Below, one piece after another: positions 1 to 64,000 of a stretch of DNA of 64,000 nucleotides. The stretch is from Obrimoposthia wandeli (Eukaryota): contig CDROCS010005690.1 in NCBI GenBank assembly GCA_977020255.1, positions 62,001 to 126,000 of the forward strand, given 5' to 3'. Each line of letters starts with the position of its first letter. Position 1 is the stretch's first letter. The notes beneath the pieces are model-generated. The model searched no databases. It was not told where the DNA came from and saw only the letters and a program-made list of their open reading frames with translations. The translations under genes and the position numbers were made by a program.

Positions 1-820
1 CACTTTCAAAAATACATTACGACTTTATTTCACAATGTATCAATGCTTTTATATCTTCAAAATACTTTATCAATAGTTTCCTCTGACTCTCACCAATAGT
101 ACGTATGCTGGCCTCGTGTGCTGCTGATCCGTCCTCGATATGTTTCCTCGGATGTCAGTTGTTGGCAGATTCAAGTTCGGAGGGCTGCTCGGTTTTCCGT
201 AGGTTGACTTGTCAATACGGCGTTTTTCGATTCCGAATGTTGTGAAATCTGAATTATCTGGCTGCACTTTTCGTTAGAACTCTGAATTATCTGGCTCCAC
301 TTTTTGTTAAAACTCTGAATTATCTGGCTCCACTTTTCGTTAAAATCTGAATTATCTGGCTGCACTTTTCGTTAGAACTCCTCCGCGACTCAATTCCGCA
401 GTCTACTTGTTGCTTGCTGTTCAGAGGTCCCGATCCCGTTAAGTGCTCTCTCATACACTGCTAATGGGTTTCTGTTGTCGTAGCTCCCAGACTGCTAATG
501 GGTTTCCAATGTACGACTAGTTCGACTTTCCTATCCGCCCCTCCTCTCAATAAACTTTTCGCAATAATCCTCTTAATTAGATTTTCGTTTTACTTAATTG
601 ATTCTTGTTTTTTTGGGGCCCTTAATAATAATTTAACCTCCCATTCATACAGCGCACTACACACGACCTTCGTGGTCCTTAATATTCAATTTACCTTTTA
701 ATTTTAATAATTTAATTCTAATATTCAATTTTATTTAATTTATAACCTTGCTTTCAAGGATTCTTATTTTACTATAATTTCGATTAATTATTTTATTTTT
801 ATCAATTCCTAAACCTAACA
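1..820 (-). repeat. LTR-like repeat, left copy (partial)
   Basis: Matches 11437-12771 and ends ...AAACCTAACA at 820. Has 4 units of the 32-33 bp repeat and lacks the block 12151-12330. Confidence 0.9.
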
Positions 821-1070
821 TATCTCGGGGGTTCTAAAAATGTTACGTCCCCGGAACGTATCGATTTTACTTTACTAGCCTCTGGGCTACTGATTTTAAG
901 TTCATCCCTACTAATTCAAGCATTCAGTACTCATCAACATGCCTAATGTTTAACAAAATTCGGTTTTTTAGTTGTTAATATAGTGAATAATTTGGACAAA
1001 GTCTCAAATATTCACTAATTTATTATACACAAAAATGGCTTTATAGATAAAGGAAAGGAGTAGGAAAGGA
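821..1070 (-). repeat. 250-bp LTR-adjacent block duplicated at 12772-13021
   Basis: Runs from TATCTCGGGGGTTCTAAAAATG to GGAGTAGGAAAGGA and appears identical in both places. Confidence 0.9.
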
Positions 1071-1091
1071 TGAATGTAACGTTATCAGTTG

Positions 1092-1627
1092 TCAATTGTT
1101 GATGGTAAGGTCTATTGTCACGGTTTGTTGGTTTCGATTGTCCAGATAGAGCATGACCTGCTCCAGGGGTAGGTCTGGAAAGGACGGAATGTCCCCGTTG
1201 TATAGGAGTAGCTGCTGGCTCAGGGTCAGGTGTGGGCTTTCGATAAATAGGTCGAAGTTCTGCCCGTTCAGCTCATGGTTCTCCATCCATAAGCGTCTGG
1301 CCTGTTGCCATGAACGGCAGTCGCGGCTAGACCGCTATCGCTCGCGGATGCCCAATTGTGTGTTGCGACGGCGCGCGAGGCACACAGAGCACTTACAGTG
1401 CTCGCCACCAATGCAGCTGGTGGGTGAGCGGGTGCCCTTGGATCGTCCACGGCACTGGAGAGTCCACTTGCAAAAGGGTGCCCGGCACATCGGGCATGTG
1501 ATGTGGCCGTGGGTCGAGCCTTGGCCCACGAATAGAGGCAGGACTCGTGGAATTTGTGTTGGCACCCGACAGGGGATGCCGACGCTGCCCAGATTTTCTC
1601 GAGGCAAATTGCACAAAGCATCTGCAC
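1092..1627 (-). pseudogene. RING-H2 protein 3 (frameshifted near 1520, nonsense TAG at 1335-1337)
   Basis: CAIC...CQHKFHESC in one frame joins CPMCR...CKCSVC in a second frame. That frame continues past a single TAG into ORF 1092-1286. Confidence 0.8.
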
Positions 1628-1964
1628 AATAATTACTCTTTAATTTGGGGTTCGATTGGGTTTAATATTAATTTACGAAATTAATATTTTAATTTTAATG
1701 TTATATTTTAATCCTACCGAATTCTGCTTTGATTTTAGGCATGTTTTTTCACATTCATACTAAGCATAAAAAATTGTCTTTTTGAGTTTCAGTCTTAATA
1801 ATTACAATTTCAAATAAACAACACACATAAAAATGGTAACGGTCATTTTACAGTTTCACAAGATTATACAATTATGATTACAATTATGGTAGCTAATTTA
1901 TCGCGGTATGCGATACACAGGGGTAGTTCATGATGTCATGTTTTAAGTCAAAAGTTACCTTCGG

Positions 1965-2270
1965 TTACTGCTGGCTGTTGGGCTGGCCTGTGCGTCGCTC
2001 CTCCACGCAGAACGAACACCAGCAGTCGCAGATGTTTTTCCAGCAGTGTACAATGGGTACCACTGCTTGGAGGCTGTCCCGGTTGTAGACATAGTGCACC
2101 GAGAAGGTTGCTCTGCACATCGGGCAGTTTGGGTAGTCGAGGGGATTGTTGTTGTTGGCGATTGGGATCCACGTCTCGAGGCATTCGACGTGGAACTGGT
2201 GGTCGCAGTTGTTGGGTTTGGTGTAGAGGTCCACGATGTTCTCGTAGCAGATGGAACATTCTCCAGACAT
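1965..2270 (-). CDS. RING-H2 (C3H2C3) E3 ligase-like protein 2
   Basis: CSIC-x13-CDHQFHVEC-x18-CPMCR; C-terminal CWKNICDCWCSFC. Confidence 0.9.
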   Translation of the reverse strand: MSGECSICYENIVDLYTKPNNCDHQFHVECLETWIPIANNNNPLDYPNCPMCRATFSVHYVYNRDSLQAVVPIVHCWKNICDCWCSFCVEERRTGQPNSQQ

Positions 2271-2330
2271 TACTGTGAGAGGGTTGATGTTGAATTTGGG
2301 CTCGATTGAGGACTGGTGGTTGTGTGATAT

Positions 2331-2630
2331 TTACACAAAAGTGGTCGGATTTTGTCGTTCTGACAGACAGTAGTAACACCAACATTCTCTCAAATTCTTC
2401 CAACAGAATATCACTTGTACATCTACATCCTCTTGGTTGGTTTCTAGTCTGATTAACCTTGTGAATTGTCTTCTGCATACAGGGCAACGAGGGTATGTCG
2501 GATAGGGAGTTTCTCCATATGTTCTGATCCATTTTGATAAACAATCCTCGTGGTGTAAATGATTGCAGGTTTCGGGTCTTGTTCTTCGTTCGGTTAAATC
2601 TTCCAAACATATTGGGCATTCTTCGGACAT
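2331..2630 (-). CDS. RING-H2 (C3H2C3) E3 ligase-like protein 1
   Basis: CPIC-x13-CNHLHHEDC-x18-CPVCR; C-terminal CWKNLRECWCYYC; paralog of 1965-2270. Confidence 0.9.
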   Translation of the reverse strand: MSEECPICLEDLTERRTRPETCNHLHHEDCLSKWIRTYGETPYPTYPRCPVCRRQFTRLIRLETNQEDVDVQVIFCWKNLRECWCYYCLSERQNPTTFV

Positions 2631-2755
2631 TCTAAATACATTATGACAATTAATTTCTACATGAGTTTTACATATTTCTACTTATTTGTACAATCGCTTC
2701 TAGATATTTCTACATATTTTTACACCCTAATTTATCTACAACCTCCTCTGACTTA

Positions 2756-4951
2756 TCATGTCTTGATGGGAGGCGGAGGTAAGGGTCGCAATTCCACTTC
2801 CTCCATTGTGGGTGTGTTACAGCATCGCAGTCCTTCGCATTTTCGTCGTATTCTTGGGCATACCTGGCTGCCTTTCACGCACACGACTGTCAATAGAACC
2901 GCTGCTGTTGACACTACTGCCATTCCAATTAGAGCATTGACCGCTGTTATTCCGCTGTCCGATGATTGGTAATCATACTTCATTTTGTTGTTTGTCGGTT
3001 TGAATGACGTTTCCATTGGTATTGATCGGTTTCCATGTATTATGTCCGATTTTCTAATAACTCGCGGATTTGGATATTTTGTTTTCGGTCCAACAGGTAT
3101 TCTTAATTGGGATTTGATATGATATTTGGGATCTAGTGAAATCGTTCCCTTCACTCTTGTCCTCTCAATAATTGTGCTTTGATTTCTGGGCTCGAGCTCT
3201 TTTCCTTTCACCTCTGTCTTTGTTATGATTACTTTTGGCTTCTCGGAATGACGTTTACTTCCGTTTACCTTTGCCTTCTTTTTGACTATGATTGGTTTTT
3301 CGGAATGACGTTTACTTCCTTTCACCTTTTCCTTTTTTATGACTATGATTGGTTTTCCGGGAATGATTTTCCTGGGTTTGATACTTATACCGAGTCCACG
3401 AAATCGACGTGTCTGGTATCTTAGAGTTATGTAGGATATTTCACCTGTTATTACTATGATTATGGTAGAGATCTCTCTAGCATTGCTGGGAATTCGGTTA
3501 CATAGACGTTCTGTATCAAAATGTGGTACTAACATTTGGTTTTGAATTTCGAATCTGATTCCACCATCTGGATTGGGACACGACACTGTTACTTTGTCAG
3601 TTTCTAACAATCTGAAGAATAATCTAACGGAATTCCATACGGTTTTACGTCGTCTACCTGTGATCATAATCCTGTCGACAACTTTCCAGATGCGCTCGTC
3701 GTTAGGTAATATTAATGACTTTGTTTGGATAAATTGAATAATCCGTTTCCTTTTTGATATTGTTATTCGTAGGTATAATACCTTTTCATGGTAGAATAAT
3801 ATCAGTCGGTAATAAAGTTTATGTTGGTCAATCTTTATTTTGATCTGGCGAATGACATACAATTTCTGATCGACATTTTCGGTTGCTGATGTTTGTAGGT
3901 GAATGTCTATTACGTAATTTGTTTTTATTAGAGGTATTTTTATGGATAACGCCCGTATCGTATCTTGTCTCCATTTACTGATCATGATCTCATAACCAGC
4001 CTCGGTCGTGGTGATTTGCATGATCAGCATGATTCCGATGATCGTCCGATTCCGAATCTCAGGAACTTCTCTGGAATAACTCAAGTTACTCATATAGTAC
4101 GGTCTTTCCTCGATATGTTCATATATCGTTGGCTGGTACTCTGGTGCTGGTTCATTTAGGAATGCTGGTCTTGGTATACTTGTGTTGAAGTTTTGTAAAT
4201 TCATTTGACCTGCTTGTCTTGCGAGATCATGACGTTTCTTTTTTGATCTCAACTCCATCTTTGTACAACAAAACAAGATGAGTAATATTAATATTATAAA
4301 TCCAATGATCAATGCCAGTATTGGATTAACCAATTCTAGAATACCATAACGTATTGCTGGTATCCCTTTACTCTTGATGGTTAATATTTTAAATTTATGT
4401 ACACTTTGGTTGGACATGTCACTGAGAAGTACTATTTTAGTTTGTCCAAATGTGTAATCTTCACATGTGACAACACTAACTCCATAATGTCCATTAAGTG
4501 TTTTCATTTCGGTCGCTGGGACTATACACATTCGTCCTGGACATCCTTTCACACACATGACCATTACGGCTTTACTTTGAGACGTCTTGATTATTTCTAG
4601 GGTGTTGTCTAGATTTCTCAAATGTAAATTATATCCAGGTAGCTTCATCAATTCAGCTTTACTGGCTGGAATGGCTTGTAGTACCAATCCAATTACTACT
4701 CCGTAGATCAATCCTTGTGCAACAGTGCACAGGGCCTTGATTGTCCTTTTGCAAAGGATTTTGATTATCATTCGTTTGAGAGACATCTGTTTCTGGTTAG
4801 GTCGTTTTGTTGTCTGTCGTTGTTTTGACATTTCTTCGATTCCAGTTTTTCCGATAATCAACTGTACCTGTTTACCTTGTATCATCAACTTTCCGAATCC
4901 ATTTTTGGCGGACAAACATGTTTTATGTCCTTCCATCGTTTCAATTATCAC
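2756..4951 (-). CDS. Multi-membrane polyprotein: two signal-peptide/ectodomain/TM units of unknown function
   Basis: 731 aa open frame. Signal-like segments GLIYGVVIGLVLQAIPASKA and TIIGIMLIMQITTTEAG; TM segments ILALIIGFIILLILILFCC and ALIGMAVVSTAAVLLTVVCV; Pro-rich C-tail PLPPPP. Confidence 0.7.
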   Translation of the reverse strand: MIIETMEGHKTCLSAKNGFGKLMIQGKQVQLIIGKTGIEEMSKQRQTTKRPNQKQMSLKRMIIKILCKRTIKALCTVAQGLIYGVVIGLVLQAIPASKAELMKLPGYNLHLRNLDNTLEIIKTSQSKAVMVMCVKGCPGRMCIVPATEMKTLNGHYGVSVVTCEDYTFGQTKIVLLSDMSNQSVHKFKILTIKSKGIPAIRYGILELVNPILALIIGFIILILLILFCCTKMELRSKKKRHDLARQAGQMNLQNFNTSIPRPAFLNEPAPEYQPTIYEHIEERPYYMSNLSYSREVPEIRNRTIIGIMLIMQITTTEAGYEIMISKWRQDTIRALSIKIPLIKTNYVIDIHLQTSATENVDQKLYVIRQIKIKIDQHKLYYRLILFYHEKVLYLRITISKRKRIIQFIQTKSLILPNDERIWKVVDRIMITGRRRKTVWNSVRLFFRLLETDKVTVSCPNPDGGIRFEIQNQMLVPHFDTERLCNRIPSNAREISTIIIVITGEISYITLRYQTRRFRGLGISIKPRKIIPGKPIIVIKKEKVKGSKRHSEKPIIVKKKAKVNGSKRHSEKPKVIITKTEVKGKELEPRNQSTIIERTRVKGTISLDPKYHIKSQLRIPVGPKTKYPNPRVIRKSDIIHGNRSIPMETSFKPTNNKMKYDYQSSDSGITAVNALIGMAVVSTAAVLLTVVCVKGSQVCPRIRRKCEGLRCCNTPTMEEVELRPLPPPPIKT

Positions 4952-5125
4952 TCTCTTACTTCCATACTAACGTGTTTTGATGACATCGCCGTCGAATATA
5001 TACGTCGGACCTTTTGTATCCGCATCTTTTTGTATTTCCCTCACAATTCGCCTTCTTCGCTTGCATCCGGCGAAAGTTGATGATATTCGGTCAAGTGTGC
5101 GCTGTCGGTCAGCTTCGTAGTCCAT

Positions 5126-5521
5126 TCATAATTGATTCAGTAATCTGTTTTGTGGATAAAATATCGCTTCATTCACTATGTTATCCTGAATCCTTTCATC
5201 TAGATACACAAGTACTTGGTTCGTTGGTCCATTCGGTCTCTTCATTTTCACAAACTGGAATCTTTTACTATCGGTTCTCATAGATCGGAGACATTTTCGG
5301 ATAAACCACACATCAATTAGTCCTATCAACACTAATAGCATCATCAGTGCCGGTGTATTGTACTGTATGATGTAGTTGTTGATTTCTTTGAACCATGAAC
5401 TATTTCCGTGGTCCGAGCCTATCTCTTGTGCTCCCGTTATCGGAATTAGACAACTTAACAAGCCTAGTGCTAGCAATCTTTGGTATTGATAGCTGGGAAC
5501 TGTTGTTGTAGCTTCATTTGT
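5126..5521 (-). CDS. Small type-I membrane protein
   Basis: Signal-like LLALGLLSCLIPITGA and TM ALMMLLVLIGLIDVWFI. In frame with the upstream DSP2 ORF across one TAA. Confidence 0.6.
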   Translation of the reverse strand, partial: TNEATTTVPSYQYQRLLALGLLSCLIPITGAQEIGSDHGNSSWFKEINNYIIQYNTPALMMLLVLIGLIDVWFIRKCLRSMRTDSKRFQFVKMKRPNGPTNQVLVYLDERIQDNIVNEAIFYPQNRLLNQL

Positions 5522-6100
5522 TTATCGTTGTTGCTTCCTTTTTTCGGAGTATTTCTCTATTTCTCGAACGAGTAACGGTTTGAATTCCGTATCTGGTCTA
5601 TTCTGTTTGATATAAACCATCGCTTCCTCTGGTGTATGACCATGGTACTCTACCAACAAGGATACACCTATGGTAGGAGCTAACATTGTACCTTTTTTCT
5701 GGTATATCAGAACGCCGTTTCCTTCTGTGACTTCGGCTTGGATGGTTTGAGTCAACTTCATCAGGTGTTGTTGTGCATCGTTTATCTCTCGATTGGAAGC
5801 ATGTATGTATCGAGTTGTGTCATCTTCAGTATGTTGACACAGACTGATTATCTCATTTCCGACTTCAACAATATTAATTACTCGGTTGATACTGTGGAAC
5901 TTTAATCCAGCAGTATCTATATCTCCTGGATGACATAGAAATACTTTTGGCATTATCTGCGTAATTTTGTCGACTCCAGCTAAGAATAAACCGGTCAACG
6001 ATAGTGCTTGAAGAAAATTCTTTTTCTTTGGATCCTCGGGGATGTCGTCCATCCGTCTCTGTTCTTGCAACATGAGTTGGTAATTTGACAATTGTCCCAA
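5522..6100 (-). CDS. C-terminal helix of DSP1 plus a second, catalytically dead dual-specificity phosphatase domain
   Basis: Starts (L)GQLSNYQ, the expected end of DSP1 after a frameshift near 6105. Then ITQIMPKVFL, INRVINI, VLIYQKKGTMLAPT (HCxxGxxR lost) and EAMVYIKQNRP. Confidence 0.75.
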   Translation of the reverse strand: MGQLSNYQLMLQEQRRMDDIPEDPKKKNFLQALSLTGLFLAGVDKITQIMPKVFLCHPGDIDTAGLKFHSINRVINIVEVGNEIISLCQHTEDDTTRYIHASNREINDAQQHLMKLTQTIQAEVTEGNGVLIYQKKGTMLAPTIGVSLLVEYHGHTPEEAMVYIKQNRPDTEFKPLLVREIEKYSEKRKQQR

Positions 6101-7740
6101 AAAATTAAGGTTGCAATACTTCTTCTTTCCTGTAGGTATTTCAGCGCTTCTAGTACCTGCATTCGTCTAGTCTTTATTAGATACGCTAATACTAGAGTTG
6201 CTGATCGGGAGATTCCTTTCTGACAATGTACCAACACTTTTCCTTGGTTTTGGAGTTCTCTGTGAAGTATCTCGTTTGTTTCTACGAACCATTCGAGAAG
6301 ATTAGCTTCCATTGAGTCTTTTACTCTTAATGTCATAGCTCTGATCGTCTGATATTGCGATTTGTGATTCATTGTAACATTGATCACGTATGTTATCCCT
6401 TGTTCCAACAGTTTCTTTTCGTCTGTTGCATCTTCCACATTTCCGAGGTATAACTTATCTGGAATGATCTCACTCATTGGTGGCATTAATTCTGACTCTT
6501 CAAGGTTTAGTCTTTCTAATCTCTTCTCTATTTGTTCGTCACATTCGTTCACTTCTCGCATAACTTCGAATATGTCTTCAATTCGGCTATTTGTTATCAC
6601 TCTGCCTACTATTAGGGCTGATTTTCCTTCTGGAATCTCGTCACTGTTATCGAAATCGGGTGCTTTTCCCATTTGGATTTCTGGTACGTTTGAAGTTTTC
6701 AGTTTCAAAAGAAATGGACAATTTGGTGCATCTCTTTTATGACGTTTCATTGGGTTTTCATTGTTCTCCCACTTTCTAAACTTTACTCTACACCATACGC
6801 ATCGTACTACTTCCCCATGACCATAACTACTTGTCGCGTTTAACATTTGTAAACCTGTTCTTGCCATTTTACGTGACATTTCTTTTGAATAGTACGGTTC
6901 TAGTGATCTTCGTCTATTTTTCTCGATTCTCAAGGGATCTTTTTCTGACAGATTCACATATGTTATTTTCCTCCTCGTCATAGCTTGTGGTCCGGAGTTT
7001 ACATCTTTGTAGTGAAGTATCGACTTTACTAGCGCTTCCTGTTTCCTATCTTGGTACGGATTTCCCATACGGAACATAGTGTATTTTTCCTTTTCGACTA
7101 TAGGTCCTCTCAACATTTTTATCTCACTCACTGAACTGTCGTTCTTAAAACTCTTGTTGTTTGGTAATATAATTATTCTTTCAAACATCCGTATTACGTC
7201 CATCCCAATCATGACTGGACTACCACAATCTGTGAATATTCTAGCATTTAACTGTAATGCTCTTCCATCGATATTTAACGAACATTTCAGTGTTCCTTCT
7301 GACACTACATCTGTACCATTCACGTTAAAAAATGTCTGTTTTCTAGGACATACTTTTCTTAATTCTTTTGATGACAATATTTCTTTACTCAATACTGATA
7401 CTGCAGATCCAGTATCAACTTCAGCAAGATATTCTCTTCCGTTCAGTGTTACTGCTACTTGTGGTGGAGCATTTGGATTCTCATTGGATATCCTAGACTT
7501 TAGAATTCTTCTAGAATTATCTTTTTTGTCTTTTTCCTCTGCTTGCGGAATCTCACTGTAGTTTACCTTAGGCCATCTTATCATTAAAATGCCTCTCTTG
7601 AATTTTTCCTTCTCTTCTTTTAGTTCCTTCATTGGATATAGGTTTAGCGCCACTTCTTCCTTGTCTGGTAACGGAATCTTTGGTTTTCCTGGTATCTTTG
7701 CATATTCTCCTGGGCTATCATTATCGTCGTCGTTGTCGTC
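5995..7740 (-). CDS. Retropepsin aspartic protease - BIR - dual-specificity phosphatase polyprotein segment
   Basis: AEVDTGSAVSVL and VMIGMDVI (protease, ~7165-7467); CVWC-x16-H-x6-C (BIR, ~6706-6927); SEIIPDKLYLGN and VLVHCQKGISRSATLVLAYL (DSP, ~6110-6483). The frame is open up to 7740, directly after the env TGA. Confidence 0.92.
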   Translation of the reverse strand, partial: DDNDDDNDSPGEYAKIPGKPKIPLPDKEEVALNLYPMKELKEEKEKFKRGILMIRWPKVNYSEIPQAEEKDKKDNSRRILKSRISNENPNAPPQVAVTLNGREYLAEVDTGSAVSVLSKEILSSKELRKVCPRKQTFFNVNGTDVVSEGTLKCSLNIDGRALQLNARIFTDCGSPVMIGMDVIRMFERIIILPNNKSFKNDSSVSEIKMLRGPIVEKEKYTMFRMGNPYQDRKQEALVKSILHYKDVNSGPQAMTRRKITYVNLSEKDPLRIEKNRRRSLEPYYSKEMSRKMARTGLQMLNATSSYGHGEVVRCVWCRVKFRKWENNENPMKRHKRDAPNCPFLLKLKTSNVPEIQMGKAPDFDNSDEIPEGKSALIVGRVITNSRIEDIFEVMREVNECDEQIEKRLERLNLEESELMPPMSEIIPDKLYLGNVEDATDEKKLLEQGITYVINVTMNHKSQYQTIRAMTLRVKDSMEANLLEWFVETNEILHRELQNQGKVLVHCQKGISRSATLVLAYLIKTRRMQVLEALKYLQERRSIATLIFWDNCQITNSCCKNRDGWTTSPRIQRKRIFFKHYR

Positions 7741-9527
7741 TCAATAGTTTCTTGGGTCTCGCATCATGGTTCTTGTTTGATGTTGCTCCTTCTTGAGGGC
7801 TCGCAACTCGTTCTCGTGATGATGGTGCATTAGATATTTTGCTAAAAATGGAAAACATCCAATTATAAGTTGCCAGGTGATTCTGGTTATCCTGTATAAA
7901 CTATACGTAGACAACACCTGGGCTATAATTACCTGCACAAATTTAATTATAACATAAATACCTATGATACCCGAAAATAATTGTCCTAAAACAAGGAATT
8001 TCCCCCACATCTTTCTAAGTGTCTGATGTGCTGCTTCCTTGAAATGACTTGGCGATAACAACATATCAAAATTCGCATATCTAGCTCCTGGCGGTAATGC
8101 TCGATGTACCATCTCCGTAAGTACTCTGGCCCTTTTTACTGGAAACATTATTTCGTTCCAGGCCGCTTTTAAGTCTTTTTCATTGTACAAACCTGCGTTC
8201 TCCATATTTTCTACCGCTTCGAATTTCATTTTTCCTTTAAGATTCGTCATTTTTATCATCTCTGGAGTTTTCGTTGGCTTTCGGTCAGGTAGCGTTATCC
8301 ATAGATCATTCGTCATCTGATATTCAGGTGCCATTATATTAGAGCAGCTGATTTCTTTAGTTGGAGTGTCTTTTGGAAGTATCATTCTCGTGATTGGTTC
8401 AACAAAGAGTTCTTTTAAATTATGCGTTACTGTCAATTCACTCGTACATCGGTTTGTTGTTCTCAACTGTACTTCTACTTTATTACACTTGTAAGTATAC
8501 AATACTTATCCCATGGTTTTAGCAAATACTCCTTCATCCAAGGGTAATATTGGTGCTACCATGTCTGGATTCGTAATAGCTAATGCTAACTTTGTTCTTA
8601 CGATCTCTTTGTTTAGCTGGCAATCTCTCTCGATCATCATCCGATATAACTGTTCCATTTGCATCAATTCTTTATGATAATAAAAATCAATTTTATTATT
8701 AAAATACGTGTGTAGCTGCATATCTCTAGGTTTTAGCTTGGTTTCTGCCAATGCTATTAATTCTCTAGACAAAACTATTCCTGGATAGTTTGTAGTACTA
8801 ACAGTCATTCCGCATCGCGCTTTGTTTCTCTTTTTAATAAATATCAATCCTTCTTTTGTTGATGTTGCCATTAACAGTGTAGGTGTCGCCGTCATAGGAA
8901 TTGGTCTTGTTTCATTATGAAATCCTTCTCCAACTTTATTATACAGGAACCCTTCTCCATCTTTATTATACAGGAACCCTTTTATTTTATTAAAGCTAAT
9001 TTCTTTCAAAAATACTAAAGAGCATTGTTTCGGATTCACGTGATACACAATTGTGGATTCACCTGTAAAACAAGATGCATCTGTCATTCTACATTCCGGA
9101 TACTTCATCATTCGTTGTGTCTTTTTATCAAAATTGGAGGTCCATGTTTTTAATTCGATCTGGTAAGTTACGTCCATTACTAACTCTGTTACTTTGATTC
9201 CACGCACGTTTTTTATTCCTCCGTCACAAGATCCATCAGGCCATCGTTGTCTTCGCAATCTCTCGGAAAAACCTCATGTGGTTTGTACGGTTTGGTAGGT
9301 GTGATTTCCGACATAAAACTTCTATGGCCACTATAGAATTCGTGATAACTTGAATGGACTGAACATTCTTTCACTTCTACTTGTATTTTATCAACATCCT
9401 GATACACAAAGTAGTTTTCAATACCTTTAACTTCTAATTTTGACGGTTGTGATTCTGGACAGTCTTCGCTGTCAAGCAGTGAATACTTTTTTTCCATCTT
9501 TGGTATGCTACAGTCGTATGCTATCAA
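7741..9527 (-). pseudogene. env: Envelope glycoprotein, chuvirus-G / herpes gB-like (class III) type; frameshift near 9245 and nonsense TAA at 8506-8508
   Basis: Mature N-terminus LIAYDC...YSLLDSEDC; CGMTVSTTNYPG; LHTYFNNK; DCQLNKEIVRTKLALA..NP; MG*VLYTYKC.KVEVQLR..CTSELTV..F..P.TR; C-terminal TM (LVLGQLFSGIIGIYVIIKFVQVII). Confidence 0.85.
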
Positions 9528-11096
9528 CCCTGATGCCTGTTGCATTCCTATGAACATTACTAACATCATCATCATCATCGTTGTGGAAATATTTGGTTGA
9601 TTGTTTCTTTCTTTCGGACGGTATTGTTTATTTTCCCTTTGACGATTCTCATGACATTGTTCGTCATCGTTTTCGTTCATTTCCACAATGGTTTTAGCGT
9701 AGTCACTTAATTTTGCCCAACCTCCGTTTTCGTCAATTCGTCTCTGCAATACATTCTCGATCAAATACATCGCTTCATTTATTCCTTGTTTGACTTCGTG
9801 AGGTTGGCTCGTTCGTTCCGTCAATTGGAAACATAGATATGTGATTGCTGTAATTAACTTTTTATTTGTAGTCTGGTTTCCACATAATCTCGCTAAAACT
9901 TCACCGTCATAAAATCTATCTATTGATGCATGGTATACATGATTCGCAGTCATTCTCTTTACTGCAGACATTTGTGATCTAACTGCTTTGGTCAAATTGT
10001 CTGTTATATCGGTTGTTTCATCTTTGTACATTTTGAACAACTTCGGCTTCACTTGCCTGAGAATTCCCGTAAGTATATCTTTACTACTTGGCGCTTCCGA
10101 ATTCATATCACCTCTGATATCTTCATTTCGCTCCGTACTATACTGCTCCAATGACGCTGCTAGCTGTCCAATGCTTAGATGTCTCTCCTCATCAGTTTGT
10201 GGTGCAGTTAGAACATTTCGTAATATACTTCCGTCCTTTCTAGGTCTTCCAGGTCCTCTTCGAAAATACTGATACTCAGTTTGATTCTCTCCTGGATCAT
10301 ATGGTTCACCATTATACTGTATCTCTTGACTTGGTCCTTCTTCATGGCCAATCTCTTCGTTTTGTCGCATCATCTGCTCTGCTTGTCTATCTCTGTATGC
10401 AGCATGCCAAATTGGTGAATCCAAATCTACAATTTCGGAGATTTCGTCTTCTCCTACTAGTTGGGTTACGTTTTCGTTTTGTCTCACTTGGTTGGCTATA
10501 TCCGTGACTTCATCTTGTCCGGTTTGAATTATCTCTGGTTCTGGTGGTACTTCGACCACCGGAGTCGTCAACTCATTTTCTAGTTCCACGTCTTGTAATT
10601 CAGCTACGTACGGTTCTGGTGTGGATGTCTTGTTCCAAGCTTCAGCTACATCATTATCTCCGCTTTCGCTTGAACTGTCTAAAATTTCTATAGGCGTTTT
10701 TATCATTTCTAATGCAGAGTTTAATATCTCCGTTAATCCTTCATTATCTACTAACTCTTGACGTCCTACAGTGATGACATCAATTTTTTCCTCTAATTCA
10801 TTTCCTATCGGATATCCACACTCGACTGGTACGTCCTCATCATCTAGTGATCTCCCTTTATAATGGAACAACATATTCATTTCATCAATTTCAAGTTTCT
10901 CGGCCAACTTTTTTCGAATAGTTTTCATCGTTTGATACACGTTAAGTTTTTCATGTATTATCTGTCCGGAAATTAATCGAAGAGAAATTTTCATCGTTCC
11001 TTTTTGGTTTGATCTCTGCACGTAACGACCATATCCTTTCAATAATCCTCGTGATACTTCTTTGTAACCCAAGTTATCATGACTATGTTTAACCAA
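9213..11096 (-). CDS. Ubiquitin/SUMO-like domain - AT-hook - Bcl-2-like domain - signal peptide - env N-terminus
   Basis: MKISLRLISGQII...LFHYKGRSLDDEDVP (UBL, ~10767-10994); RRGPGRPRK (AT-hook); YLIENVLQRRIDENGGWAKL (BH2-like); MMMMMLVMFIGMQQASG followed by LIAYDC. Confidence 0.8.
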   Translation of the reverse strand: MVKHSHDNLGYKEVSRGLLKGYGRYVQRSNQKGTMKISLRLISGQIIHEKLNVYQTMKTIRKKLAEKLEIDEMNMLFHYKGRSLDDEDVPVECGYPIGNELEEKIDVITVGRQELVDNEGLTEILNSALEMIKTPIEILDSSSESGDNDVAEAWNKTSTPEPYVAELQDVELENELTTPVVEVPPEPEIIQTGQDEVTDIANQVRQNENVTQLVGEDEISEIVDLDSPIWHAAYRDRQAEQMMRQNEEIGHEEGPSQEIQYNGEPYDPGENQTEYQYFRRGPGRPRKDGSILRNVLTAPQTDEERHLSIGQLAASLEQYSTERNEDIRGDMNSEAPSSKDILTGILRQVKPKLFKMYKDETTDITDNLTKAVRSQMSAVKRMTANHVYHASIDRFYDGEVLARLCGNQTTNKKLITAITYLCFQLTERTSQPHEVKQGINEAMYLIENVLQRRIDENGGWAKLSDYAKTIVEMNENDDEQCHENRQRENKQYRPKERNNQPNISTTMMMMMLVMFIGMQQASGLIAYDCSIPKMEKKYSLLDSEDCPESQPSKLEVKGIENYFVYQDVDKIQVEVKECSVHSSYHEFYSGHRSFMSEITPTKPYKPHEVFPRDCEDNDGLMDLVTEE

Positions 11097-11428
11097 TTCT
11101 GCTCCACTTCTTCCAATCTGTGCACTTTAATTGTTTGCAATTTGGCCAAAACTTCTGGAGCTTCACTCGTTTCATCTAACGGTTGATTCAACGTCTCCTT
11201 AGCTTCACTAATTATCTTTTTTACATTTTCCATACTCGTAGCATTTCTTGCTGCTTCTATGTGATCAGTCATAGGTTGTGCGTTACACGTTTTCTCTATT
11301 GGTGTCTCATACGCTTCTAGCATTCGGTTTATTAAATCATTCATCTCCTCTCTCGAGTGTAGACTTTTTCGTGTTTCGACAACGTAGATGAATTCGCCAT
11401 CTTTGTGTGTGTATATCAAATATATCAA
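11039..11428 (-). CDS. N-terminal ORF of the cargo region, unknown function; probably frameshift-linked to 9213-11096
   Basis: 129 aa helical-looking ORF overlapping the next ORF. A candidate ATG at 11400 would join this frame if a 2-nt AG duplication were removed. Confidence 0.45.
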   Translation of the reverse strand: MIYLIYTHKDGEFIYVVETRKSLHSREEMNDLINRMLEAYETPIEKTCNAQPMTDHIEAARNATSMENVKKIISEAKETLNQPLDETSEAPEVLAKLQTIKVHRLEEVEQNWLNIVMITWVTKKYHEDY

Positions 11429-11726
11429 TGCTTTTACACTTTCAAAAATACTTTACGACTTTATTTCACAATGTATCAATGCTTTTATATCTTCAAAATA
11501 CTTTACGACTTTTATTTCAATCAATACTTTTATATCTTCAAAATACTTTACCAATAGTTTCCTCTGACTCTCACCAATAGTACGTATGCTGGCCTCGTGT
11601 GCTGCTGATCCGTCCTCGATATGTTTCCTCGGATGTCAGTTGGCAGATTCCAGTTCGGAGGGCTGCTCGGTTTTCCGTAGGTTGACTTGTCAATACGGCG
11701 TTTTTCGATTCCGAATGTTGTGAAAT

Positions 11727-12165
11727 CTGAATTATCTGGCTGCACGTTTTGTTAGAACTCTGAATTATCTGGCTCCACTTTTCGTTAAAACTCTGAATTA
11801 TCTGGCTCCACTTTTCGTTAAAATCTGAATTATCTGGCTGCACTTTTCGTTAGAACTCTGAATTATCTGGCTCCACTTTTCGTTAAAATCTGAATTATCT
11901 GGCTGCACGTTTTGTTAGAACTCTGAATTATCTGGCTCCACTTTTCGTTAAAACTCTGAATTATCTGGCTCCACTTTTCGTTAAAATCTGAATTATCTGG
12001 CTGCACTTTTCGTTAGAACTCTGAATTATCTGGCTCCACTTTTCGTTAAAATCTGAATTATCTGGCTGCACTTTTCGTTAGAACTCTGAATTATCTGGCT
12101 GCACTTTTCGTTAAAATCTGCCAAATCTGGCTGCACTTTTCGTTAGAACTGACAAATCTGGTCCT
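11727..12165. repeat. 32-33 bp tandem array (TCTGAATTATCTGGCT(G/C)CACTTTTCGTTA(G/A)AAC)
   Basis: About 12 intact and 2 degenerate units; 4 units in the left copy (248-379). Confidence 0.95.
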
Positions 12166-12177
12166 ATCGCGGGTCTT

Positions 12178-12211
12178 ATTTATACCCGTAGTGTATTGCC
12201 ACGCTTTTATA
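12178..12211 (-). promoter_or_regulatory. Candidate TATA boxes of the LTR promoter
   Basis: Minus-strand TATAAAA (12211-12205) and TATAAAT (12184-12178), ~800 bp upstream of the first ORF. Confidence 0.45.
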
Positions 12212-13021
12212 AGTGCTTTTTGTTTGCTGCAGAGATTCTACAAGAGTAAATAATGGATAATCTCAAATCCACTTTACCTCCGGTTTCCTAGACAGTCGCT
12301 GTCCAGACGCTAATGGACTTCCTGTTTGTTCCTCCGCGACTCAATTCCGCAGTCTACTTGCTGCTTGCTGTTCAGAGGTCCCGATCCCGTTAAGTGCTCT
12401 CTCAGACACTGCTAATGGGTTTCTGTTGTCGTAGCTCCCAGACTGCTAATGGGTTTCCAATGTACGACTAATTCGACTTTCCTATCCGCCCCTCCTCTCA
12501 ATAAACTTTTCGCAATAATTCTCTTAATTAGATTTTCGTTTTTCTTAATTGATTCTTGTTTTTTTGGGGCCCTTAATAATAATTTAACCTCCCATACATA
12601 CAGCGCACTACACACGACCTTCGTGGTCCTTAATATTCAATTTACCTTTTAATTTTAATAATTTAATTCTAATATTCAATTTTATTTAATTTATAACCTT
12701 GCTTTCAAGGATTCTTATTTCACTATAATTTCGATTAATTATTTTATTTTTATCAATTCCTAAACCTAACATATCTCGGGGGTTCTAAAAATGTTACGTC
12801 CCCGGAACGTATCGATTTTACTTTACTAGCCTCTGGGCTACTGATTTTAAGTTCATCCCTACTAATTCAAGCATTCAGTACTCATCAACATGCCTAATGT
12901 TTAACAAAATTCGGTTTTTTAGTTGTTAATATAGTGAATAATTTGGACAAAGTCTCAAATATTCACTAATTTATTATACACAAAAATGGCTTTATAGATA
13001 AAGGAAAGGAGTAGGAAAGGA

Positions 13022-13139
13022 AATTTAATCTAAAATCTTATATTCAATTTTATCTAATTTATAACCTTGCTTTCAAGGATTCTTATTTCACTATAATTTC
13101 GATTAATTATTTTATTTTTATCAATTCCTAAACCTAACA
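13022..13139 (-). repeat. Extra LTR-terminal fragment (118 bp)
   Basis: Matches 12661-12771, including the CCTTGCTTTCAAGG hairpin and AAACCTAACA end; flanked by ATAT (13140-13143). Confidence 0.9.
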
Positions 13140-13169
13140 ATATTACTGTTAATGTTTATAATATCAGAA

Positions 13170-13390
13170 AGAACAATAATGAACTAAATTGGATAATATA
13201 TATTGTTTCTGAATAATGGGACAATAAACTGTTTTGAATAATGATATTGGTTTCTGAATAATGGAACAATAAACTGTTTTGAATAATGATATTGGTTTCT
13301 GAATAATGGGACAATAAACTGTTTTGAATAATGATATTGGTTTCTGAATAATGAGACAATAAACTGTTTTGAATAATGATATTGGTTTAA
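13170..13390. repeat. 45-bp minisatellite
   Basis: About 4.5-5 copies of TGAATAATGATATTGGTTTCTGAATAATGGGACAATAAACTGTTT. Confidence 0.9.
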
Positions 13391-14349: not shown

Positions 14350-17101
14350 ATTGTGCTAAAAGAAAAATTGAAACAAGCAGATCAAAATAAATATATATTT
14401 TTAAAGTCAAAGAATATTTTTAGATCAAATAGTTGTTGATATAGCTCACAAGAAGATAGAAAGATCTAAAAATAAATATATGTTGGCAGTAATCGATCTA
14501 TTTTGTAAACTGTTATCACTATGAGCAACAACAAAAGAAGATAAAATAAAAATTACTAAAACACACTAGACAAATTGGATATATAAATTTGAAAACTTAA
14601 GAGTATTTTAACAGAACGAGGACGAATATTTACTGTAAATATATTTTCAGAATTGGCTATAAAAAATTTGTATTGAACAGGAGCTTACAGCACCATAAAA
14701 AGTGTTGGGGTTTCTATATGAAACTTATAGATCCTCTTGAATGTGGAGGGCCCTAACGTGAGTTCTATAGAAGCAGGTCTTAAGGATTGTTGTGGCCTAC
14801 TTAATGCTATGGTTGCCTGTCTCTATTCTTATCTGAAGGTTTGTTGTTTTGTCTTAATCTGAAGAGTTTAGAACAATGCTTCTAGTTGTAGGAAATCGTT
14901 TATTATTAACACACTAGACTAACACGAAGCAATACGTTTAAGTACGTATTTCTAAAAAGTTACAGTAAAATTCCTAAGACTTCCGTAAGTCTCTACACAA
15001 GTGGGGATGAACCACGTATCGATTTTAGTTTAGGTTTGCTTGGCGCTAGAGTCTTTACTCTAAAAATGCGGACAATTTTAGTTTATAGATTTTTACAGAG
15101 CTGTTGCTCTAAAATAGGGAATAAGTTTACAGAGCTGTTGCTCTAAAATTATGGCTTTTAACGAAAACTAGAGTCAATATTTTTCAATATAACTTTATAC
15201 CTTTTTCAAAACTAAATCAATACCTCAACACACTTTATATCTTTTTCACGAAAATTAGGATAAATACTTTTTCACGAAAATTAGGATAATTACTTCAATA
15301 TTACTTTATTCCTTTTTTCAAAACTAGAATCAATATTTCAAATATACTTTATATCTTTTTCACGAAAACTAAGATAATTACTTTTTCGCGAAAATGAGGA
15401 CAATTACTTCAATATTCCTTTTTCAAAACTAATATCAATATTTCAAATATACTTTATAGCGCTCACTTCTCACCTTTCTCAATCCGTGATATGATTTCGT
15501 CCGGTTGTGAGATTGGTACCGTGATGAGGGGAACCCTTTGTCCTCCGTATCCGCTGGAGCTCGTGCTCGTTGTCACTCGGATTGCTTTGTAACTCGTCTT
15601 GCGCTCTGAGATCTATTTAGCTCCTGTTTTAGGCGGCGGCTGAGTTGGTGTCTGCGAACCTTTATCGAAGCTGTGTTCCTCGATCCGATTTCCCAGATTT
15701 CTGCTTCCCGGTTTTCTTGAGTCAGCTAATTTGTGTTTGTGACTTTCTGACTTCTTCTTTTTATATGTTGTTCGGCTCCTAGACGAAAATTAACAATGCA
15801 CTTAATTCTAAGTGCTTCTTACTGGGATCTGGTTAATTGACTCCTGTCTGCTTCTAAGTGCGATTCCCGGCACTGAGTGATATCCGCCGCTTAGCTCCCA
15901 CGTGCGGCTAATGGACTCCTAATAGATTTTTCGTTGACTTTCTAAATTGTCCCACGTGTGACTAATGGACTTCCTAATAGATTTTCTGAATCTGCTGCTT
16001 AGCTCCCACGTGCGGCTAATGGACTTCCTAATAGATTTTCTGAAATAATTGATTGATTTCGTTTACTGTAATAATTACCTCCTTAATTGAATTTGCATGA
16101 TCGGACTTTTCTTCTTGTTTGTTAATCTCTTTTTTGGGGGCCTTTTGTTTCCAAACCTAACTTCTTATATACCCACGCATCTCACACGACCTTTGTGGTC
16201 CTTAAATATTTAATCTTATTTTAACTTTAATAATTTTAATTTCGATTTTAAAATTTATTTAATTCTAACCTTGCGCTTTCAAGGATTTTTATTTTACTAT
16301 AAAATCAATTAATTATTTAATTTTAGTCAAAACCTAATCCTAACAAAAGCATCAAGCTAACAGTTTAGCAGAATGAGTTATACGGTAAGATATATGATTG
16401 TTATGACAATAGCATCTACTAACAAAGTAAAATGGTGACACGATTTATTGCCACACATTGAATTTTCTATAAATGCAACAGTAAATAATTAATGAAAACA
16501 TTCACCGTTTGAGATCAATTATGAAAAAAAAGCATCAAGTGCAACAACAAACAATATAGAATATATTATTCAAATGTAAGGAAAAACCTACAAGTCTCAG
16601 CTGATAAGTTAGACAAATTAGTTAATGAAAAACAGAGGGAAAAGGATATTTGAAGTAAATGAAAAGGTGCTTTTTAAAAAGCACCCAATTAAAAGAAGCA
16701 AGAATGGTGACCAGTATGAAGGCCCATATAGAATAATATATTTTTTGAGTCCACGACTGTTATCAATTCAGTTTCCAAAATGAATTCTCCCCAGGACAAT
16801 CGAGTGACTGAAGAAGTGCAAGTTTGAATAGTGAAGGGGAGAGTTATGTAATCAGAAACCAGAAATAACTTATCGGGAATATTTGTTTATAAAAACTTAT
16901 GTAAACATGTATGATATAAACTGTGTAGTGGAATCTAATTTTTGAATTATGTTTACGATATAAAACATAACTGACTGAAAACATGGTTACTCTAAAACGG
17001 ATACCAAAAATCATATTATGAGAAACTAATATGTTCGGCTATTAATTAGGAATTGTCTAAACCTATATTGAAATCTCAGTCCCATATTTTTTAGAATTAC
17101 A
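14350..17101 (+). mobile_element. Degenerate Gypsy integrase region with PPT and 3' LTR, split by a solo LTR
   Basis: NKYMLAVIDLFCKL near 14480; P*K/HQANSLAE is restored across the insertion; PPT GAAGGGGAGAG at 16833-16843; LTR TGTAAT...ATTACA at 16847-17101. Confidence 0.7.
14703..16345 (-). mobile_element. Solo LTR (same superfamily as the cargo element)
   Basis: Termini TGTTGGGG...CCTAACA with 4-bp TSD AAAG (14699-14702 and 16346-16349). Shares ACGTATCGATTTT, GACC-TTTGT-GGTC and CCTTG-CGCTTT-CAAGG motifs with the element-1 repeats. Confidence 0.9.
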
Positions 17102-18129: not shown

Positions 18130-18516
18130 ATGGATAAATTTATTAAAAAGATCAATACAAGTCCATTGATACGAAAAAGAATAACAGCAGGAGATAATAG
18201 TATGCCGCATTTTCCCAAAACGTTTGGAGTTCCGCTCAAAAAACTTCTAGAGAGAGAAGATATTTCAAAAATACCTAATGTAGTTCTTATTATATGCAAC
18301 TTTCTTTTGCTGGACGGCATCGATACAGAGGGAATATTTCGTGTAAATGGAAATACAAAAGCTGTAGAGAGTATAAAAGCAATGTTTGAGGAACACCATT
18401 CTCCGAGCATGTCTAATTGTACGGATGTACACGCTGTCGCATCAGTGTTAAAGTGCTTTCTTCGAGAACTACCGGATGGCTTGGTTCCTGAGAAAATAAC
18501 GCTTCAGCTGTTTGAT
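18130..18516 (+). CDS. FAM13A: FAM13 exon 1 (RhoGAP N-half)
   Basis: FGVPL...EGIFRVNG (arginine finger present)...LRELPDGLVP; donor GTAAGT at 18517. Confidence 0.92.
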
Positions 18517-21500
18517 GTAAGTCAAGAATTTTTTATTTTTATCGTAATCTGTACTAGTTTTGATTATTTTAAGACGTTTTGGGTTCATGCATGATTGTAA
18601 TTTTCACTTTTCGACTCTGTCTTTAACTTCATATTCATTATGTAAGTCTAGTTATAATGCATTCTAAACATTTTATAGAAAATTAATAGTTGTAACAGTT
18701 TGATATCTGAAATTTACTTTCACTATTATAATTTTAAACAAATTATTATATTGTACTTTTTTACATTCATATAAATGACACTTATGCCAAATTGATTAAT
18801 ATATACATAATAGTTTTCGATACAAAATGATCAATTTAAAAGTTGTACAAACATTAAAAAACAGTATGAAAACATTTAATTTTGTTGGTTATTGTGGATT
18901 TAAAAAAGCTTGAAATTAACTTTTGACAGAACCCACCAAGGTCTCTTCCGGTTTTTGAAATGATGATTATTAAAAGGTGACTTCTTATTTTAACTCTCAT
19001 TATGTTACAGTCCATTTTACCTCTTTCAATTTGGGAGCTTTAAATCGGTTTATTTATTTGCTAAATTCTTCAAACAATTAATTTTGTATTTTAATTATTT
19101 TACAATAAATTACATCATTTTTTAGAATTGTAATTTATGCTTAGATACAAATTAGTCTTTTCCCACATATTGTGCGACTAATTTCTTATGATATTCAAAC
19201 ATGCAACATACACAAATTTGATAACAAAACTATATTTTCCATCTTTTTAAAAGCTTTTATTCATTCTATACTTCTGATCAACTTTTATTTGGCACTTTCA
19301 TAACTTCTTTCATGAATTTGATTTATAATATTTTCTGGCCCTTCATATACTGTTGTCTTTGTTTTTTATCGTTATTTTTCTAAGATATGATGGGCATATT
19401 TAAATTTCCTTTTATATATATACTATTTCGTCAACACATTCTCTGAATATTTTCTTTCCAAACATGATTTCTGATCGAGATTTGCCAATGGCATTTTGCA
19501 TGTTGTTTTCACGTTAAACTTTATTTCTGGCAGTAATTCCACCCACCTTTGCATCTCTAATGGTACGAAAATTCCTATCAATTTGACTATTAGCTGAATA
19601 ATGCTATGAACTCGACTGATGCAAAACATTGTAAAACTCACCCAATTCTTTCATCAAAGTGTTTTTGAAACTTTCTGTATGTATGACTCTTGAAGCTTAA
19701 CATTTGTTTTTCAGTTCATTCAAAATAGTTCTTCCATCTTGAGTGTTGGTTGCATTTAATCAGCATGCCATAAATTCCTATGATCGTTTCTTTTTATTTA
19801 TGGTATTCAAATTTCAACATCAATTGTTTTTACGATATCAATTGTTACTTTAAATTTTGTATTCTTATTTAACTTAACAACTGTTGGCCAGATAATTCAC
19901 TTTTGTTTACCATCATACTTGTTTTCGATCCCAATAAATTGTTTGGACGCGTGATGGGCCTTCCCGGCAAATTATATCGACATTCAAGCTGCATAAGTAC
20001 TTCATCCAGGTCTGTACTTGCGGAGTCATTGGCTTCTTTGTTTTTATCATAAATGTTATAGCTTTATGATCTGTTCTAAGCTTGAACCTAGCATTTGTAT
20101 CTTATATAAATTATTTCTTATAACCTGGATATGCCAAACTGGAGCATAATTACTACCACACGGGTTTTCTAATACTTTCAAAAACTTTCTAACATAATTT
20201 GCTAATCTTAAGAGGTTTCTTCATTTTTTTAAAAACTCGTTTAAATTCAGCAATTGTCTTTTTTGCTTTCAACCCTTTTCATTAAGATTATGTCACAGAA
20301 ATTAATCGATGAACTTGATCTTATAGATGTATTCGGAATAGAATAAAACGTTTGTAAAAAGGAATATCTACAATTTCTTTCCCGTATTCCCCGTTTCATT
20401 TGTGTATAGTTTAGGTATATTTATCACAGCATAGTTTATCAATTTCCAACAAAACAATATATTCATAATGTCATGTTGAATGGGATTAGGCAATTTTTTA
20501 CTGATTAAAGTAGGTTTGTTTTAAGGTTGAAGTTCGGGGATTGTTTTGAAAGTATGGTGTTAATGTTTCAATAAATTATTAAAACAAATAATTAATTATG
20601 TAATTAAAAAATTTCATAAAACTTTTGATCTCTCCTATACAAGAAATGGCTCTGGTTTTTCTAGATTGAATTTTACAATCAATTAATTGTACAACCACAA
20701 TGAAATACCCAAAAAAGAACCGTTCTCAAAATTTTTAAAAATAGATAAAGAAAAGTAAAAATAGAAACTGATTTTGCAAATGAATTAGAATGGAATTATC
20801 ACAGGTGTCGCCTATTTACAATTGACCTGGCTGTACTTATTCCCAGCCTCAATCCAGTCCTATGTACTTCAGCGGCGGGTTTATCTGACTGTCAGATACG
20901 CTGCTTTTCTCTCTTTCGCGGTTTAGTCGCCCATCAACATGACGACGGGCCTAATTAACCAATTAGGGAGATACTATTTACTCTTTCTCTCTGTTGTCTT
21001 TTATTCATAATTGAGGGTTTTTCTTTTATCTAAATTAAGATAGAGTTAAACGTACATATAAACATTAAAAAAACAAAAGTGGTCTTTGATTGACGGTAAC
21101 GGAGGACGGGGTGGGTTAATGCTTCGTTTCGAAGTTGATTAAGCTTCACAATGGTCAAAAGATAAACATTTCTATTAACTAATGAAGGCCTTTGCTTAAA
21201 CAATTTTCTATGTAGAATTTTCCTGAATTTTTAATTTCACCTGGATCTCCAGGAAGTTGTTATGTAACCATTGGCTTCTTTCGGTGTACATCGAGGTTCG
21301 GAAAGTGTGTGGGAGGTTCATCTTCATCTTTAATCATCTTTTCATAGCAAGTCACAATGTGTTTTGAAGATGGATCTCATTCCTTTAGTTTCTGTAATTC
21401 GTTTATCTGATGATGTATCTATTTCCAAATTTTTACTTTACCAAACTGCAAAATATGTAAGACTTTGGTGAGCATTTGTATTCACTAGCTCCTTAAAATT

Positions 21501-54756: not shown

Positions 54757-54818
54757 TTTTAATAAAATTTTGATTTTTTCGTTATAAACAACAGGATTTG
54801 CTGCAAATTTAGATAATT

Positions 54819-55307
54819 ATGCAGGAATATATCATAGATTTTGAGGCTTTCATTAACAAAAATGGTGATTATATTATAAAAGAATTATGTATTATGGATG
54901 TATGCGACGTTTTTCATCCTTTGCATTTCATATTTCAAATAGATATCCTGTTTAAAAGTTTAGATTATAAGAAAAAATTTACTAATTTATATCTAACTAA
55001 TTACTTTCATTTATTAAAATGGAAAGAAGGACATAAGGCTTTTTGTGAAATATGTATTTTCGATACAATAACATCTAATTTTGATATAGAAAATGGAATT
55101 TTTTATGTTTTAGATGAAATGGATGGCAAAAAATATAAGACTTTAAAAAAATATTTCCCCAAATTGAGGTTGAATACTTTAAATATTTCACGTGATCATC
55201 TATTAAAAATTCCACGAAATATTTGCTGTCCATATCGTAATCATGGTGACCATTGTGCATATATAAAATGTTTAAGTCTTTCTTATTATTACTTGACATG
55301 TAGATAA
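54819..55307 (+). CDS. Maverick accessory protein, DEDD exonuclease-like N-terminus
   Basis: YIIDFEAF...IIKELCI; C-terminal CPYRNHGDHCA. Confidence 0.55.
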   Translation: MQEYIIDFEAFINKNGDYIIKELCIMDVCDVFHPLHFIFQIDILFKSLDYKKKFTNLYLTNYFHLLKWKEGHKAFCEICIFDTITSNFDIENGIFYVLDEMDGKKYKTLKKYFPKLRLNTLNISRDHLLKIPRNICCPYRNHGDHCAYIKCLSLSYYYLTCR

Positions 55308-55507
55308 ACAATTCTTCTAATTGGAGAAATTTATTATTAAAATTTTACAACTAATTATAAATAAGCCTTTTGATTGGAGGAATAAAAATATTTTTTTTAA
55401 CCAATAACAGATAAACAATCCTTCTCAGTGGAGGGATAAATTCAATTTTTTAATCCAATAGGAATCACCTAGAGTATCACCTAAATAATAAATATGTTAT
55501 AGTTAAG

Positions 55508-57939: not shown

Positions 57940-58136
57940 TTTTTTTAGTATAGTTTTTTAAAATTTTAGATCCCTATGACACCTTGACTCTAACTTTTTG
58001 TTATTTCAAAACATTTTTTAGGTTGGGCTTTATCTTTGCTGACAGATCTCGGGATGTTGTGTTTAATAAATGTATTAAAAAAAAATTCGTCTTATGTCTT
58101 TTATTATTTTACCCTTATATTTTTAGGGATTTAAAA

Positions 58137-58367
58137 TTAGTCTAAATTAGTACCATCCCGATTTAATACTTTTATTTGAACATAAAGCAAAGTATCATTC
58201 AAATCTAAATACTTGCTATTGGAACCATTAATATTAAATTCTAAATCGGTTAAAGTGGTTCCTGAAACTGAGTTAACTAGAAATATTTCTTCAAAGGAAG
58301 CATTATCTACAACTACTTGTGGAAGCGGTTTATCAAAATTACACAATTCAGTTTTGGCGCAACTCAT
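58137..58367 (-). pseudogene. Maverick major capsid protein, N-terminal 76 aa only
   Basis: CAKTELCNFDKPLPQ...LEFNINGSNSKYLDLNDTLLYVQIKV..DG. Confidence 0.8.
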
Positions 58368-58672: not shown

Positions 58673-58693
58673 TTTGTTTTCTTAAATGTATTG

Positions 58694-60785: not shown

Positions 60786-60817
60786 CCATATCTTTAACTG
60801 ATTTTATAAATAATTGT

Positions 60818-61147: not shown

Positions 61148-61328
61148 TTTAATAAAAAAGGTTCAATTTAAATATTGTTTATATTCGAAGCCATTTAAGT
61201 TTTTTTTTATTTTTAACTACAGATTTGATTAATTTTTTCACTTCTTTTATTTTTTAATGATTCTATTTTTTGATTTCTTAGGCTTTGCTTTACGTTTTAC
61301 TATCAACTTCTTAAAAGGCATTATAAAT

Positions 61329-63995: not shown

Positions 63996-64000
63996 AATAT

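Follow-up and report, generated by a model that had tools for sequence, protein, structure and literature searches.

A BIR domain in the protease-containing frame of a broken, env-carrying, Burro-like retrotransposon copy

Retrotransposon-borne anti-death genes have been published for Burro (GYPSM1), a very large planarian element of the Ty3/gypsy type, one of them with a reported benefit to stem cells: a region of Burro1 that joins a RING and a BIR is described as guarding these cells from caspase-mediated apoptosis (available text of PMC13465017, citing Dev Cell 2026). Burro encodes one huge polyprotein in which ubiquitin-like, BCL2-like and env domains precede the protease, and it also carries BIR, RING-type, MATH and ankyrin motifs, so that the presence of BIR, Bcl-2-like, ubiquitin-like and RING domains together with an env located before the protease is already published for a retrotransposon (PMC6431247, accessible portion). 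GAG-ENV-POL elements with a gB-type env are known from flatworms, bryozoans and nematodes (PMC13524379, accessible portion). The accessible parts of two further reports (PMC8532177 and bioRxiv 10.64898/2025.12.11.693146) yielded nothing more on the domains.

Layout of the element and comparison with Burro

We analyzed a 64-kb stretch of DNA, hereafter called the window. Reading its minus strand from ~11411, we found in succession a ubiquitin-like domain, a Bcl-2-like domain, a gB-type env, a protease, a BIR, a phosphatase, a predicted pseudo-phosphatase, membrane ORFs and three RING-H2 ORFs (Table 1). The anatomy of the element, taken alone, is held with high confidence.

TABLE 1 Coordinates of the element's features in the window
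Feature	Position	Strand	Remarks
Downstream LTR	1..820	-	Terminus at 820; extends beyond the window
RING-H2 ORF 3	1268..1661	-	Split over two frames
RING-H2 ORF 2	1965..2330	-	Tail as in ORF 1
RING-H2 ORF 1	2331..2681	-	Extra C-x6-C-x-C-x2-C tail
ORFs with four hydrophobic segments	2756..5521	-	Same frame as second phosphatase; interrupted by stops
Second phosphatase-like domain	5555..5941	-	DSPc E 3.2e-6, below cutoff
Dual-specificity phosphatase 1 (DSPc)	6115..6453	-	Same frame as BIR, residues 430-542; 103 bits
BIR domain	6706..6924	-	Pfam, zinc motif, predicted fold
BIR zinc ligands	C 6801, C 6792, H 6741, C 6720	-
Retropepsin-type protease	7189..7458	-	DTG at ~7416; same frame as BIR, residues 95-184
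gB/chuvirus-type fusion glycoprotein (env), three pieces	7768..9581	-	Monjiviricetes_fusion E 1e-10, 4e-18, 8e-46
Helical, probably Bcl-2-like domain, NGGW motif	9690..10187	-	Low-confidence model, pLDDT 40
Ubiquitin-like domain	10815..10982	-	Pfam E 0.012, below cutoff
Upstream LTR	11412..12771	-	Terminus at 12771; 33-base tandem repeats
Rearranged tandem remnant	12772..13139	-	249-base copy of the sequence preceding the downstream LTR, then short duplicate LTR terminus ending at 13139

The order of the ubiquitin-like, BCL2-like, env and protease domains is that of Burro, the ubiquitin-like and BCL2-like calls being individually weak, and both are LTR elements with BIR and RING-type motifs and tandem repeats (PMC6431247, in its accessible portion). 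Unlike Burro, the window element carries a phosphatase and a pseudo-phosphatase (the word "phosphatase" occurs 0 times in the accessible text of PMC6431247) and three separate RING-H2 ORFs, and it has an interior of ~10 kb, versus up to 25 kb for Burro. In addition, the window copy shows no gag, MATH, ankyrin, dUTPase, RT, RNase H or integrase, and thus has neither the gag with CCHC knuckles, nor the RT-RNase H-integrase block, nor the size of over 30 kb that we took as marks of Burro. We file the element as Burro-like and not as a member of the family because the interval between its LTRs contains neither gag nor RT nor integrase in this copy; since there is no RT, only architecture and env place it in Ty3/gypsy. 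No Burro sequence was found among the protein homologue matches of the fusion frame and the env piece.

The gB-type env upstream of the protease is also a trait of the GAG-ENV-POL errantiviruses, from which the window copy differs by the lack of gag and RT and by its cargo, BIR and phosphatase having 0 occurrences in the survey of those elements as far as its text is available (PMC13524379). By eye, the window env is closest to six Schmidtea mediterranea errantivirus rows in the available part of that survey's supplement, with 28 identities out of 54 in one stretch. Of the hits obtained there with five short env motifs, 3/3, 1/1, 1/1, 1/2 and 6/17 fell in S. mediterranea rows, in a search that was not blind because the motifs were picked after the likeness had been noticed. 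The env is broken in the window copy by a frame break with missing letters near 9250 and by stops at 8506 and 7741, and a search among longer proteins with an env piece returned no relatives.

The initial annotation had also counted a Bcl-2-like domain in the element, an identity that is weakly supported by the sequence and the model of that stretch. When the model was submitted to Foldseek, 42 of the 49 listed rows were Bcl-2-fold chains, all with E values of at least 0.35. A wide fold search gave a best Z of 5.9, with Bcl-2 folds at Z 4.2 to 4.5 and none near the top. Pfam produced no Bcl-2 match, a sequence search of solved structures returned four unrelated weak matches, and the ESM Atlas yielded no usable match. 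The RING-H2 genes announced in the same annotation were recovered as three ORFs, all with the C..C..C.H..H..C spacing, the third of which is not a single open frame (Table 1).

No family was found for the ORFs at 2756..5521. The longest stretch, ORF 2756-4966 on the minus strand, is rich in lysine and isoleucine and contains 57-base repeats as well as three hydrophobic segments; in the ESM Atlas it gave only feature-level leads, below 0.9, to viral glycoproteins. It may represent the element's second membrane protein.

The block is bracketed by direct repeats, which agree at 99% between 379-1070 and 12330-13021 and at 95% between 9-380 and 11495-11858. The upstream LTR abuts coding sequence at ~11411, with no gag in between. 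The 249 bases that adjoin the LTR terminus are identical at 821-1070 and 12772-13021, with a purine run at the end on the plus strand. Neither a primer-binding site nor a standard polypurine tract on the coding strand was identified. Two solo LTRs, at 14703-16345 and 52773-54756, are related to the LTR of the element; both have TG..CA ends, contain tandem repeats and are flanked by a 4-base target duplication. The search for target duplications on them left 2 and 4 candidate starts, and those selected also resemble each other at 81%. The LTR termini at 820 and 12771 were fixed by their match to these two solo LTRs, the far end lying beyond the window.

A BIR between protease and phosphatase

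The BIR is housed in a minus-strand open frame of 581 residues that runs from 7740 to 5995. Its zinc signature had been announced with an exact CX2CX16HX6C spacing, and this was borne out: CVWC-X16-H-X6-C lies at 6801-6718 (minus strand), and no other match to this spacing occurs in any of the six frames of the 64-kb window. As C-X2-C-X16-H-X6-C arose in only 1 of 100 shuffled windows, a chance origin of the motif was rejected. The flanking hallmarks are also in place, namely, RRRSL (containing the expected RRSL) at 6915-6901, MARTG at 6867-6853 and SNVP at 6693-6682, although the last falls just beyond the interval 6706..6927 first proposed for the domain. The Pfam search set out beforehand as a check placed a BIR (PF00653) at residues 286-344 of the frame (E 1.2e-10, 42.1 bits for a cutoff of 22.9), and a second profile run scored 45.6 bits, also above the cutoff.

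The domain matches 14 of 20 well-conserved columns, including E11, R14, G34, W62 and all four zinc ligands, a column being regarded as well conserved when kept in at least 20 of 28 IAP hits (those aligned out of 36 BIR-bearing hits). Overall identity to the aligned IAP hits is 23 to 37%. A model built from a 29-row alignment has a mean pLDDT of 86.9 and resembles solved BIRs with a probability of 1.00 and TM values of 0.63 to 0.76 (144 matches at E ≤ 0.001). Because an alignment of BIRs itself favors the BIR fold, the model speaks for compatibility rather than as independent proof. Judged by sequence and model together, the stretch encodes a real BIR domain of the zinc-binding type.

The initial annotation placed this domain between a retroviral-type protease and a phosphatase, and the three do lie in one frame. 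The protease scored 24.8 bits with Asp_protease_2 (cutoff 24.3) and 27.3 bits with gag-asp_proteas (cutoff 28.2). The first phosphatase has the loop HCxxGxSRS at 6228-6202 (HCQKGISRS), that is, the HC-X5-R signature expected of an active dual-specificity phosphatase, and its best solved match is DUSP10/MKP5 (E 5.7e-17). MKP-type phosphatases damp JNK/p38. In the window copy, a frameshift near 6110 removes the last part of this domain. The second phosphatase-like domain has Gln at the position of the catalytic Cys and so departs from the active signature; it is predicted to be a pseudo-phosphatase.

Among the best 150 matches in 1.84 billion representative proteins, 0 combined a BIR with a phosphatase or a protease (36 had the BIR only and 114 the phosphatase only). 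The fusion frame had no full-length relatives, its 36 hits among longer proteins being to the phosphatase only; none was found in viral contigs, and metagenome contigs contained one weak phosphatase locus. As far as we searched, the phosphatase and pseudo-phosphatase cargo is new, the literature search having returned no phosphatase-carrying gypsy element and no BIR or Bcl-2 accessory genes in invertebrate endogenous retroviruses, although a phosphatase may be recorded for Burro-2 to -4 in the figures or supplementary material of two papers.

Copies of the element and decay of the window copy

Each of three runs from one sample contributes approximately 250,000 contigs that map to 1000-13200, and a marine metagenome contributes 61. 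Summed contig depth does not equal copy number; the family is nonetheless large and present in many copies. A contig of the second sample covers 6775-7170, so that a portion of the BIR is continuous in it with the linker on the protease side. Contig depth is approximately tenfold lower below 1850, where the third RING ORF lies, and is low over the LTR too, a pattern that suggests subfamilies with different 3′ ends.

The window copy differs from nearly all other depth at no fewer than 40 places (40 of 853 variable places were listed). The stops near 4967, 5522 and 7741 are peculiar to it, as nearly all other depth has another letter there; the last (7741-7743) is directly upstream of the protease. 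At 9250, the site of the env frame break, a metagenome contig has ~90 extra letters. It is thus the domain, and not the gene, that can be called intact: the copy has the stop at 7741-7743 and the frameshift near 6110, and it lacks gag, RT and integrase. By these sequence comparisons, the window copy is in decay, whereas the family has probably retained a long open polyprotein. The window copy is predicted to be silent as protein, save for possible short products from internal starts.

The junction between BIR and phosphatase may have arisen by a deletion. Other copies depart from the window sequence at 11411, where gag is expected, and at 6540, between the two domains. The divergence at 6540, together with the low depth at 6616 (~67,000, versus 250,000 at 6815 and 495,000 to 640,000 at 5702-5833), indicates that BIR and phosphatase may not adjoin in complete copies. 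The adjacency could result from loss of an RT-RNase H-integrase block in the window copy or its subfamily, such that complete copies would have the BIR after the protease in pol and the phosphatases later. In support of such a loss, no RT or integrase lies between the LTRs of the window copy, this copy has other deletions, at 11411 and 9250, and in 37 contigs of one run (X1) the match with the window sequence stops at 6540 and different sequence follows. Against it, the frame is open across 6540, 78 contigs of the same run cover 6616, so that the linker is not unique to the window copy, and no loose end beyond 6540 appears among the matches listed (24 listed, 7840 others). We rate this loss as a serious possibility, somewhat short of an even chance; it is compatible with the role for the BIR that we favor below.

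Possible roles of the BIR and genomic surroundings

Our preferred reading, which we consider moderately probable, is that the BIR, located in the protease-containing frame of a broken, env-carrying Burro-like copy, serves intact copies as one of several captured cell-survival modules, more likely in an adaptor role than by trapping caspases. Intact copies would express one long polyprotein from which the protease of the element would free the cargo domains. The task of the Bcl-2-like domain would be to prevent mitochondrial death, and that of the MKP-like phosphatase to restrain JNK/p38 stress signaling; the BIR, with its nonstandard peptide groove, would more likely be a protein-binding adaptor in death and stress signaling than a classic motif-binding caspase trap. 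The RING-H2 products would join these three in keeping the expressing cell alive, and the gain for the element would be the survival of that cell.

Type II BIRs, which bind IAP motifs, have E/Q76 and W/H80, whereas type I BIRs have V/L80 and type I-like BIRs I/V/L80 or S81 (PMC8917759, accessible portion). The BIR of the element has R76, D80 and A81 and thus fits neither type; the R76 + D80 pair occurs in 0 of 130 BIR motifs among the hits, and D80 in 1 of 130. Classic IAP-motif binding is therefore doubtful as judged by these residues. On the other side, the domain retains an acidic E at the 314 position and W310, and the motif-binding DIAP1 BIR1 ranks first among its single-domain solved matches (41.8 bits), which argues for keeping motif binding in consideration. 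In XIAP BIR3 numbering, we take these two positions to be the groove floor, the acidic one holding the N terminus of the motif. These data bear on a reading in which the BIR is a classic trap for caspases or IAP antagonists and is one half of a split IAP, made complete in trans by the separately encoded RING proteins. It has a precedent in Burro1, where BIR and RING act against caspase death in a retrotransposon that, like the window element, carries both (PMC13465017, in its accessible part); Burro1 B-IAP is a RING + BIR, whereas in the window element a phosphatase comes after the BIR, whose groove is nonstandard. The window frame shares with XIAP, cIAP, DIAP1 and IAP-3 the BIR fold and the CCHC zinc site and differs from these cellular and baculoviral proteins in having a single BIR, no C-terminal RING-HC and the residues of neither type. 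The RINGs of IAPs are C3HC4. As initially annotated, there is no RING in cis, with no RING match in the 581-residue frame. Completion of a split IAP in trans finds no support, because the free RINGs are of the RING-H2 class, with a Cys tail of their own, unlike the C3HC4-type RINGs present on 4 of the 6 IAP hits scanned (2 of 6 had none). This second reading thus seems unlikely to us. A proposal that the element targets apoptosis at both the mitochondrial and caspase levels holds in part and is in large measure already published: an anti-apoptotic role fits Burro (accessible text of PMC6431247 and PMC13465017), but the caspase level is unsafe, given R76 and D80, and the window copy cannot make the polyprotein.

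Another reading, which we deem very unlikely, is that the BIR was captured passively from a host IAP and does nothing for the element. Among named sequences, those closest to the BIR are ordinary IAPs of animals (spider, abalone, bryozoan and frog), and the 36 copy-specific in-frame differences distribute over codon positions 1, 2 and 3 as 12, 9 and 15, as neutral decay would give (p 0.19 for a third-position excess); the count covers 36 of the 40 listed places, omitting four that are noncoding or unassigned. However, the BIR is in frame, intronless and within the polyprotein, it occurs in many copies and in a second sample, and it has kept all zinc ligands despite no more than 37% identity to any hit. 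Passive capture of a neighboring host IAP exon was rejected, the adjacent host gene being a RhoGAP. A baculovirus donor was likewise rejected, as viral matches are 16 to 31% identical and no better than cellular ones. Identity to the cellular and viral matches listed is 16 to 37%, which does not allow a donor to be singled out.

Retaining the adaptor-like survival module as the favored role, we also consider a more elaborate version, which is speculative and rather improbable. In a Burro-related lineage whose host is also in the marine sample, the pair of phosphatase and pseudo-phosphatase would replace the RING of an IAP-like protein, and the noncanonical BIR would dock on the TRAF/TAB-JNK pathway. 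Death would be blocked at the mitochondrion, at stress kinases and via ubiquitin ligases, and the element would spread without RT in a helper-dependent manner.

A BIR of the R76/D80 groove type was not found in the accessible parts of the Burro and errantivirus literature searched. The element suggests that the anti-death kit varies, here with a different BIR groove, a MAPK-phosphatase-like domain plus a pseudo-phosphatase, and RING-H2 triplets. Should selection act on the BIR, it would offer a second, divergent case in which to test such cargo as a general tolerance route for large retroelements, and to test the death pathway per lineage.

Outside the element, the window contains exons of a host RhoGAP gene at 18130-39700 on the plus strand, with Pfam matches at 18130-18591 and 27689-28105, which identifies the host as an animal. 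The exon near 39023, with no Pfam match, is presumably a FAM13-type C terminus by its look. Reverse transcriptase remnants of other retroelements lie on the minus strand at 22372-26389 and 45805-48067, the latter with an integrase zinc domain, with no link to the BIR element. Finally, 54813-64000 is a Maverick/Polinton-like remnant with pieces of a protein-primed DNA polymerase, an integrase and an A32-type ATPase.
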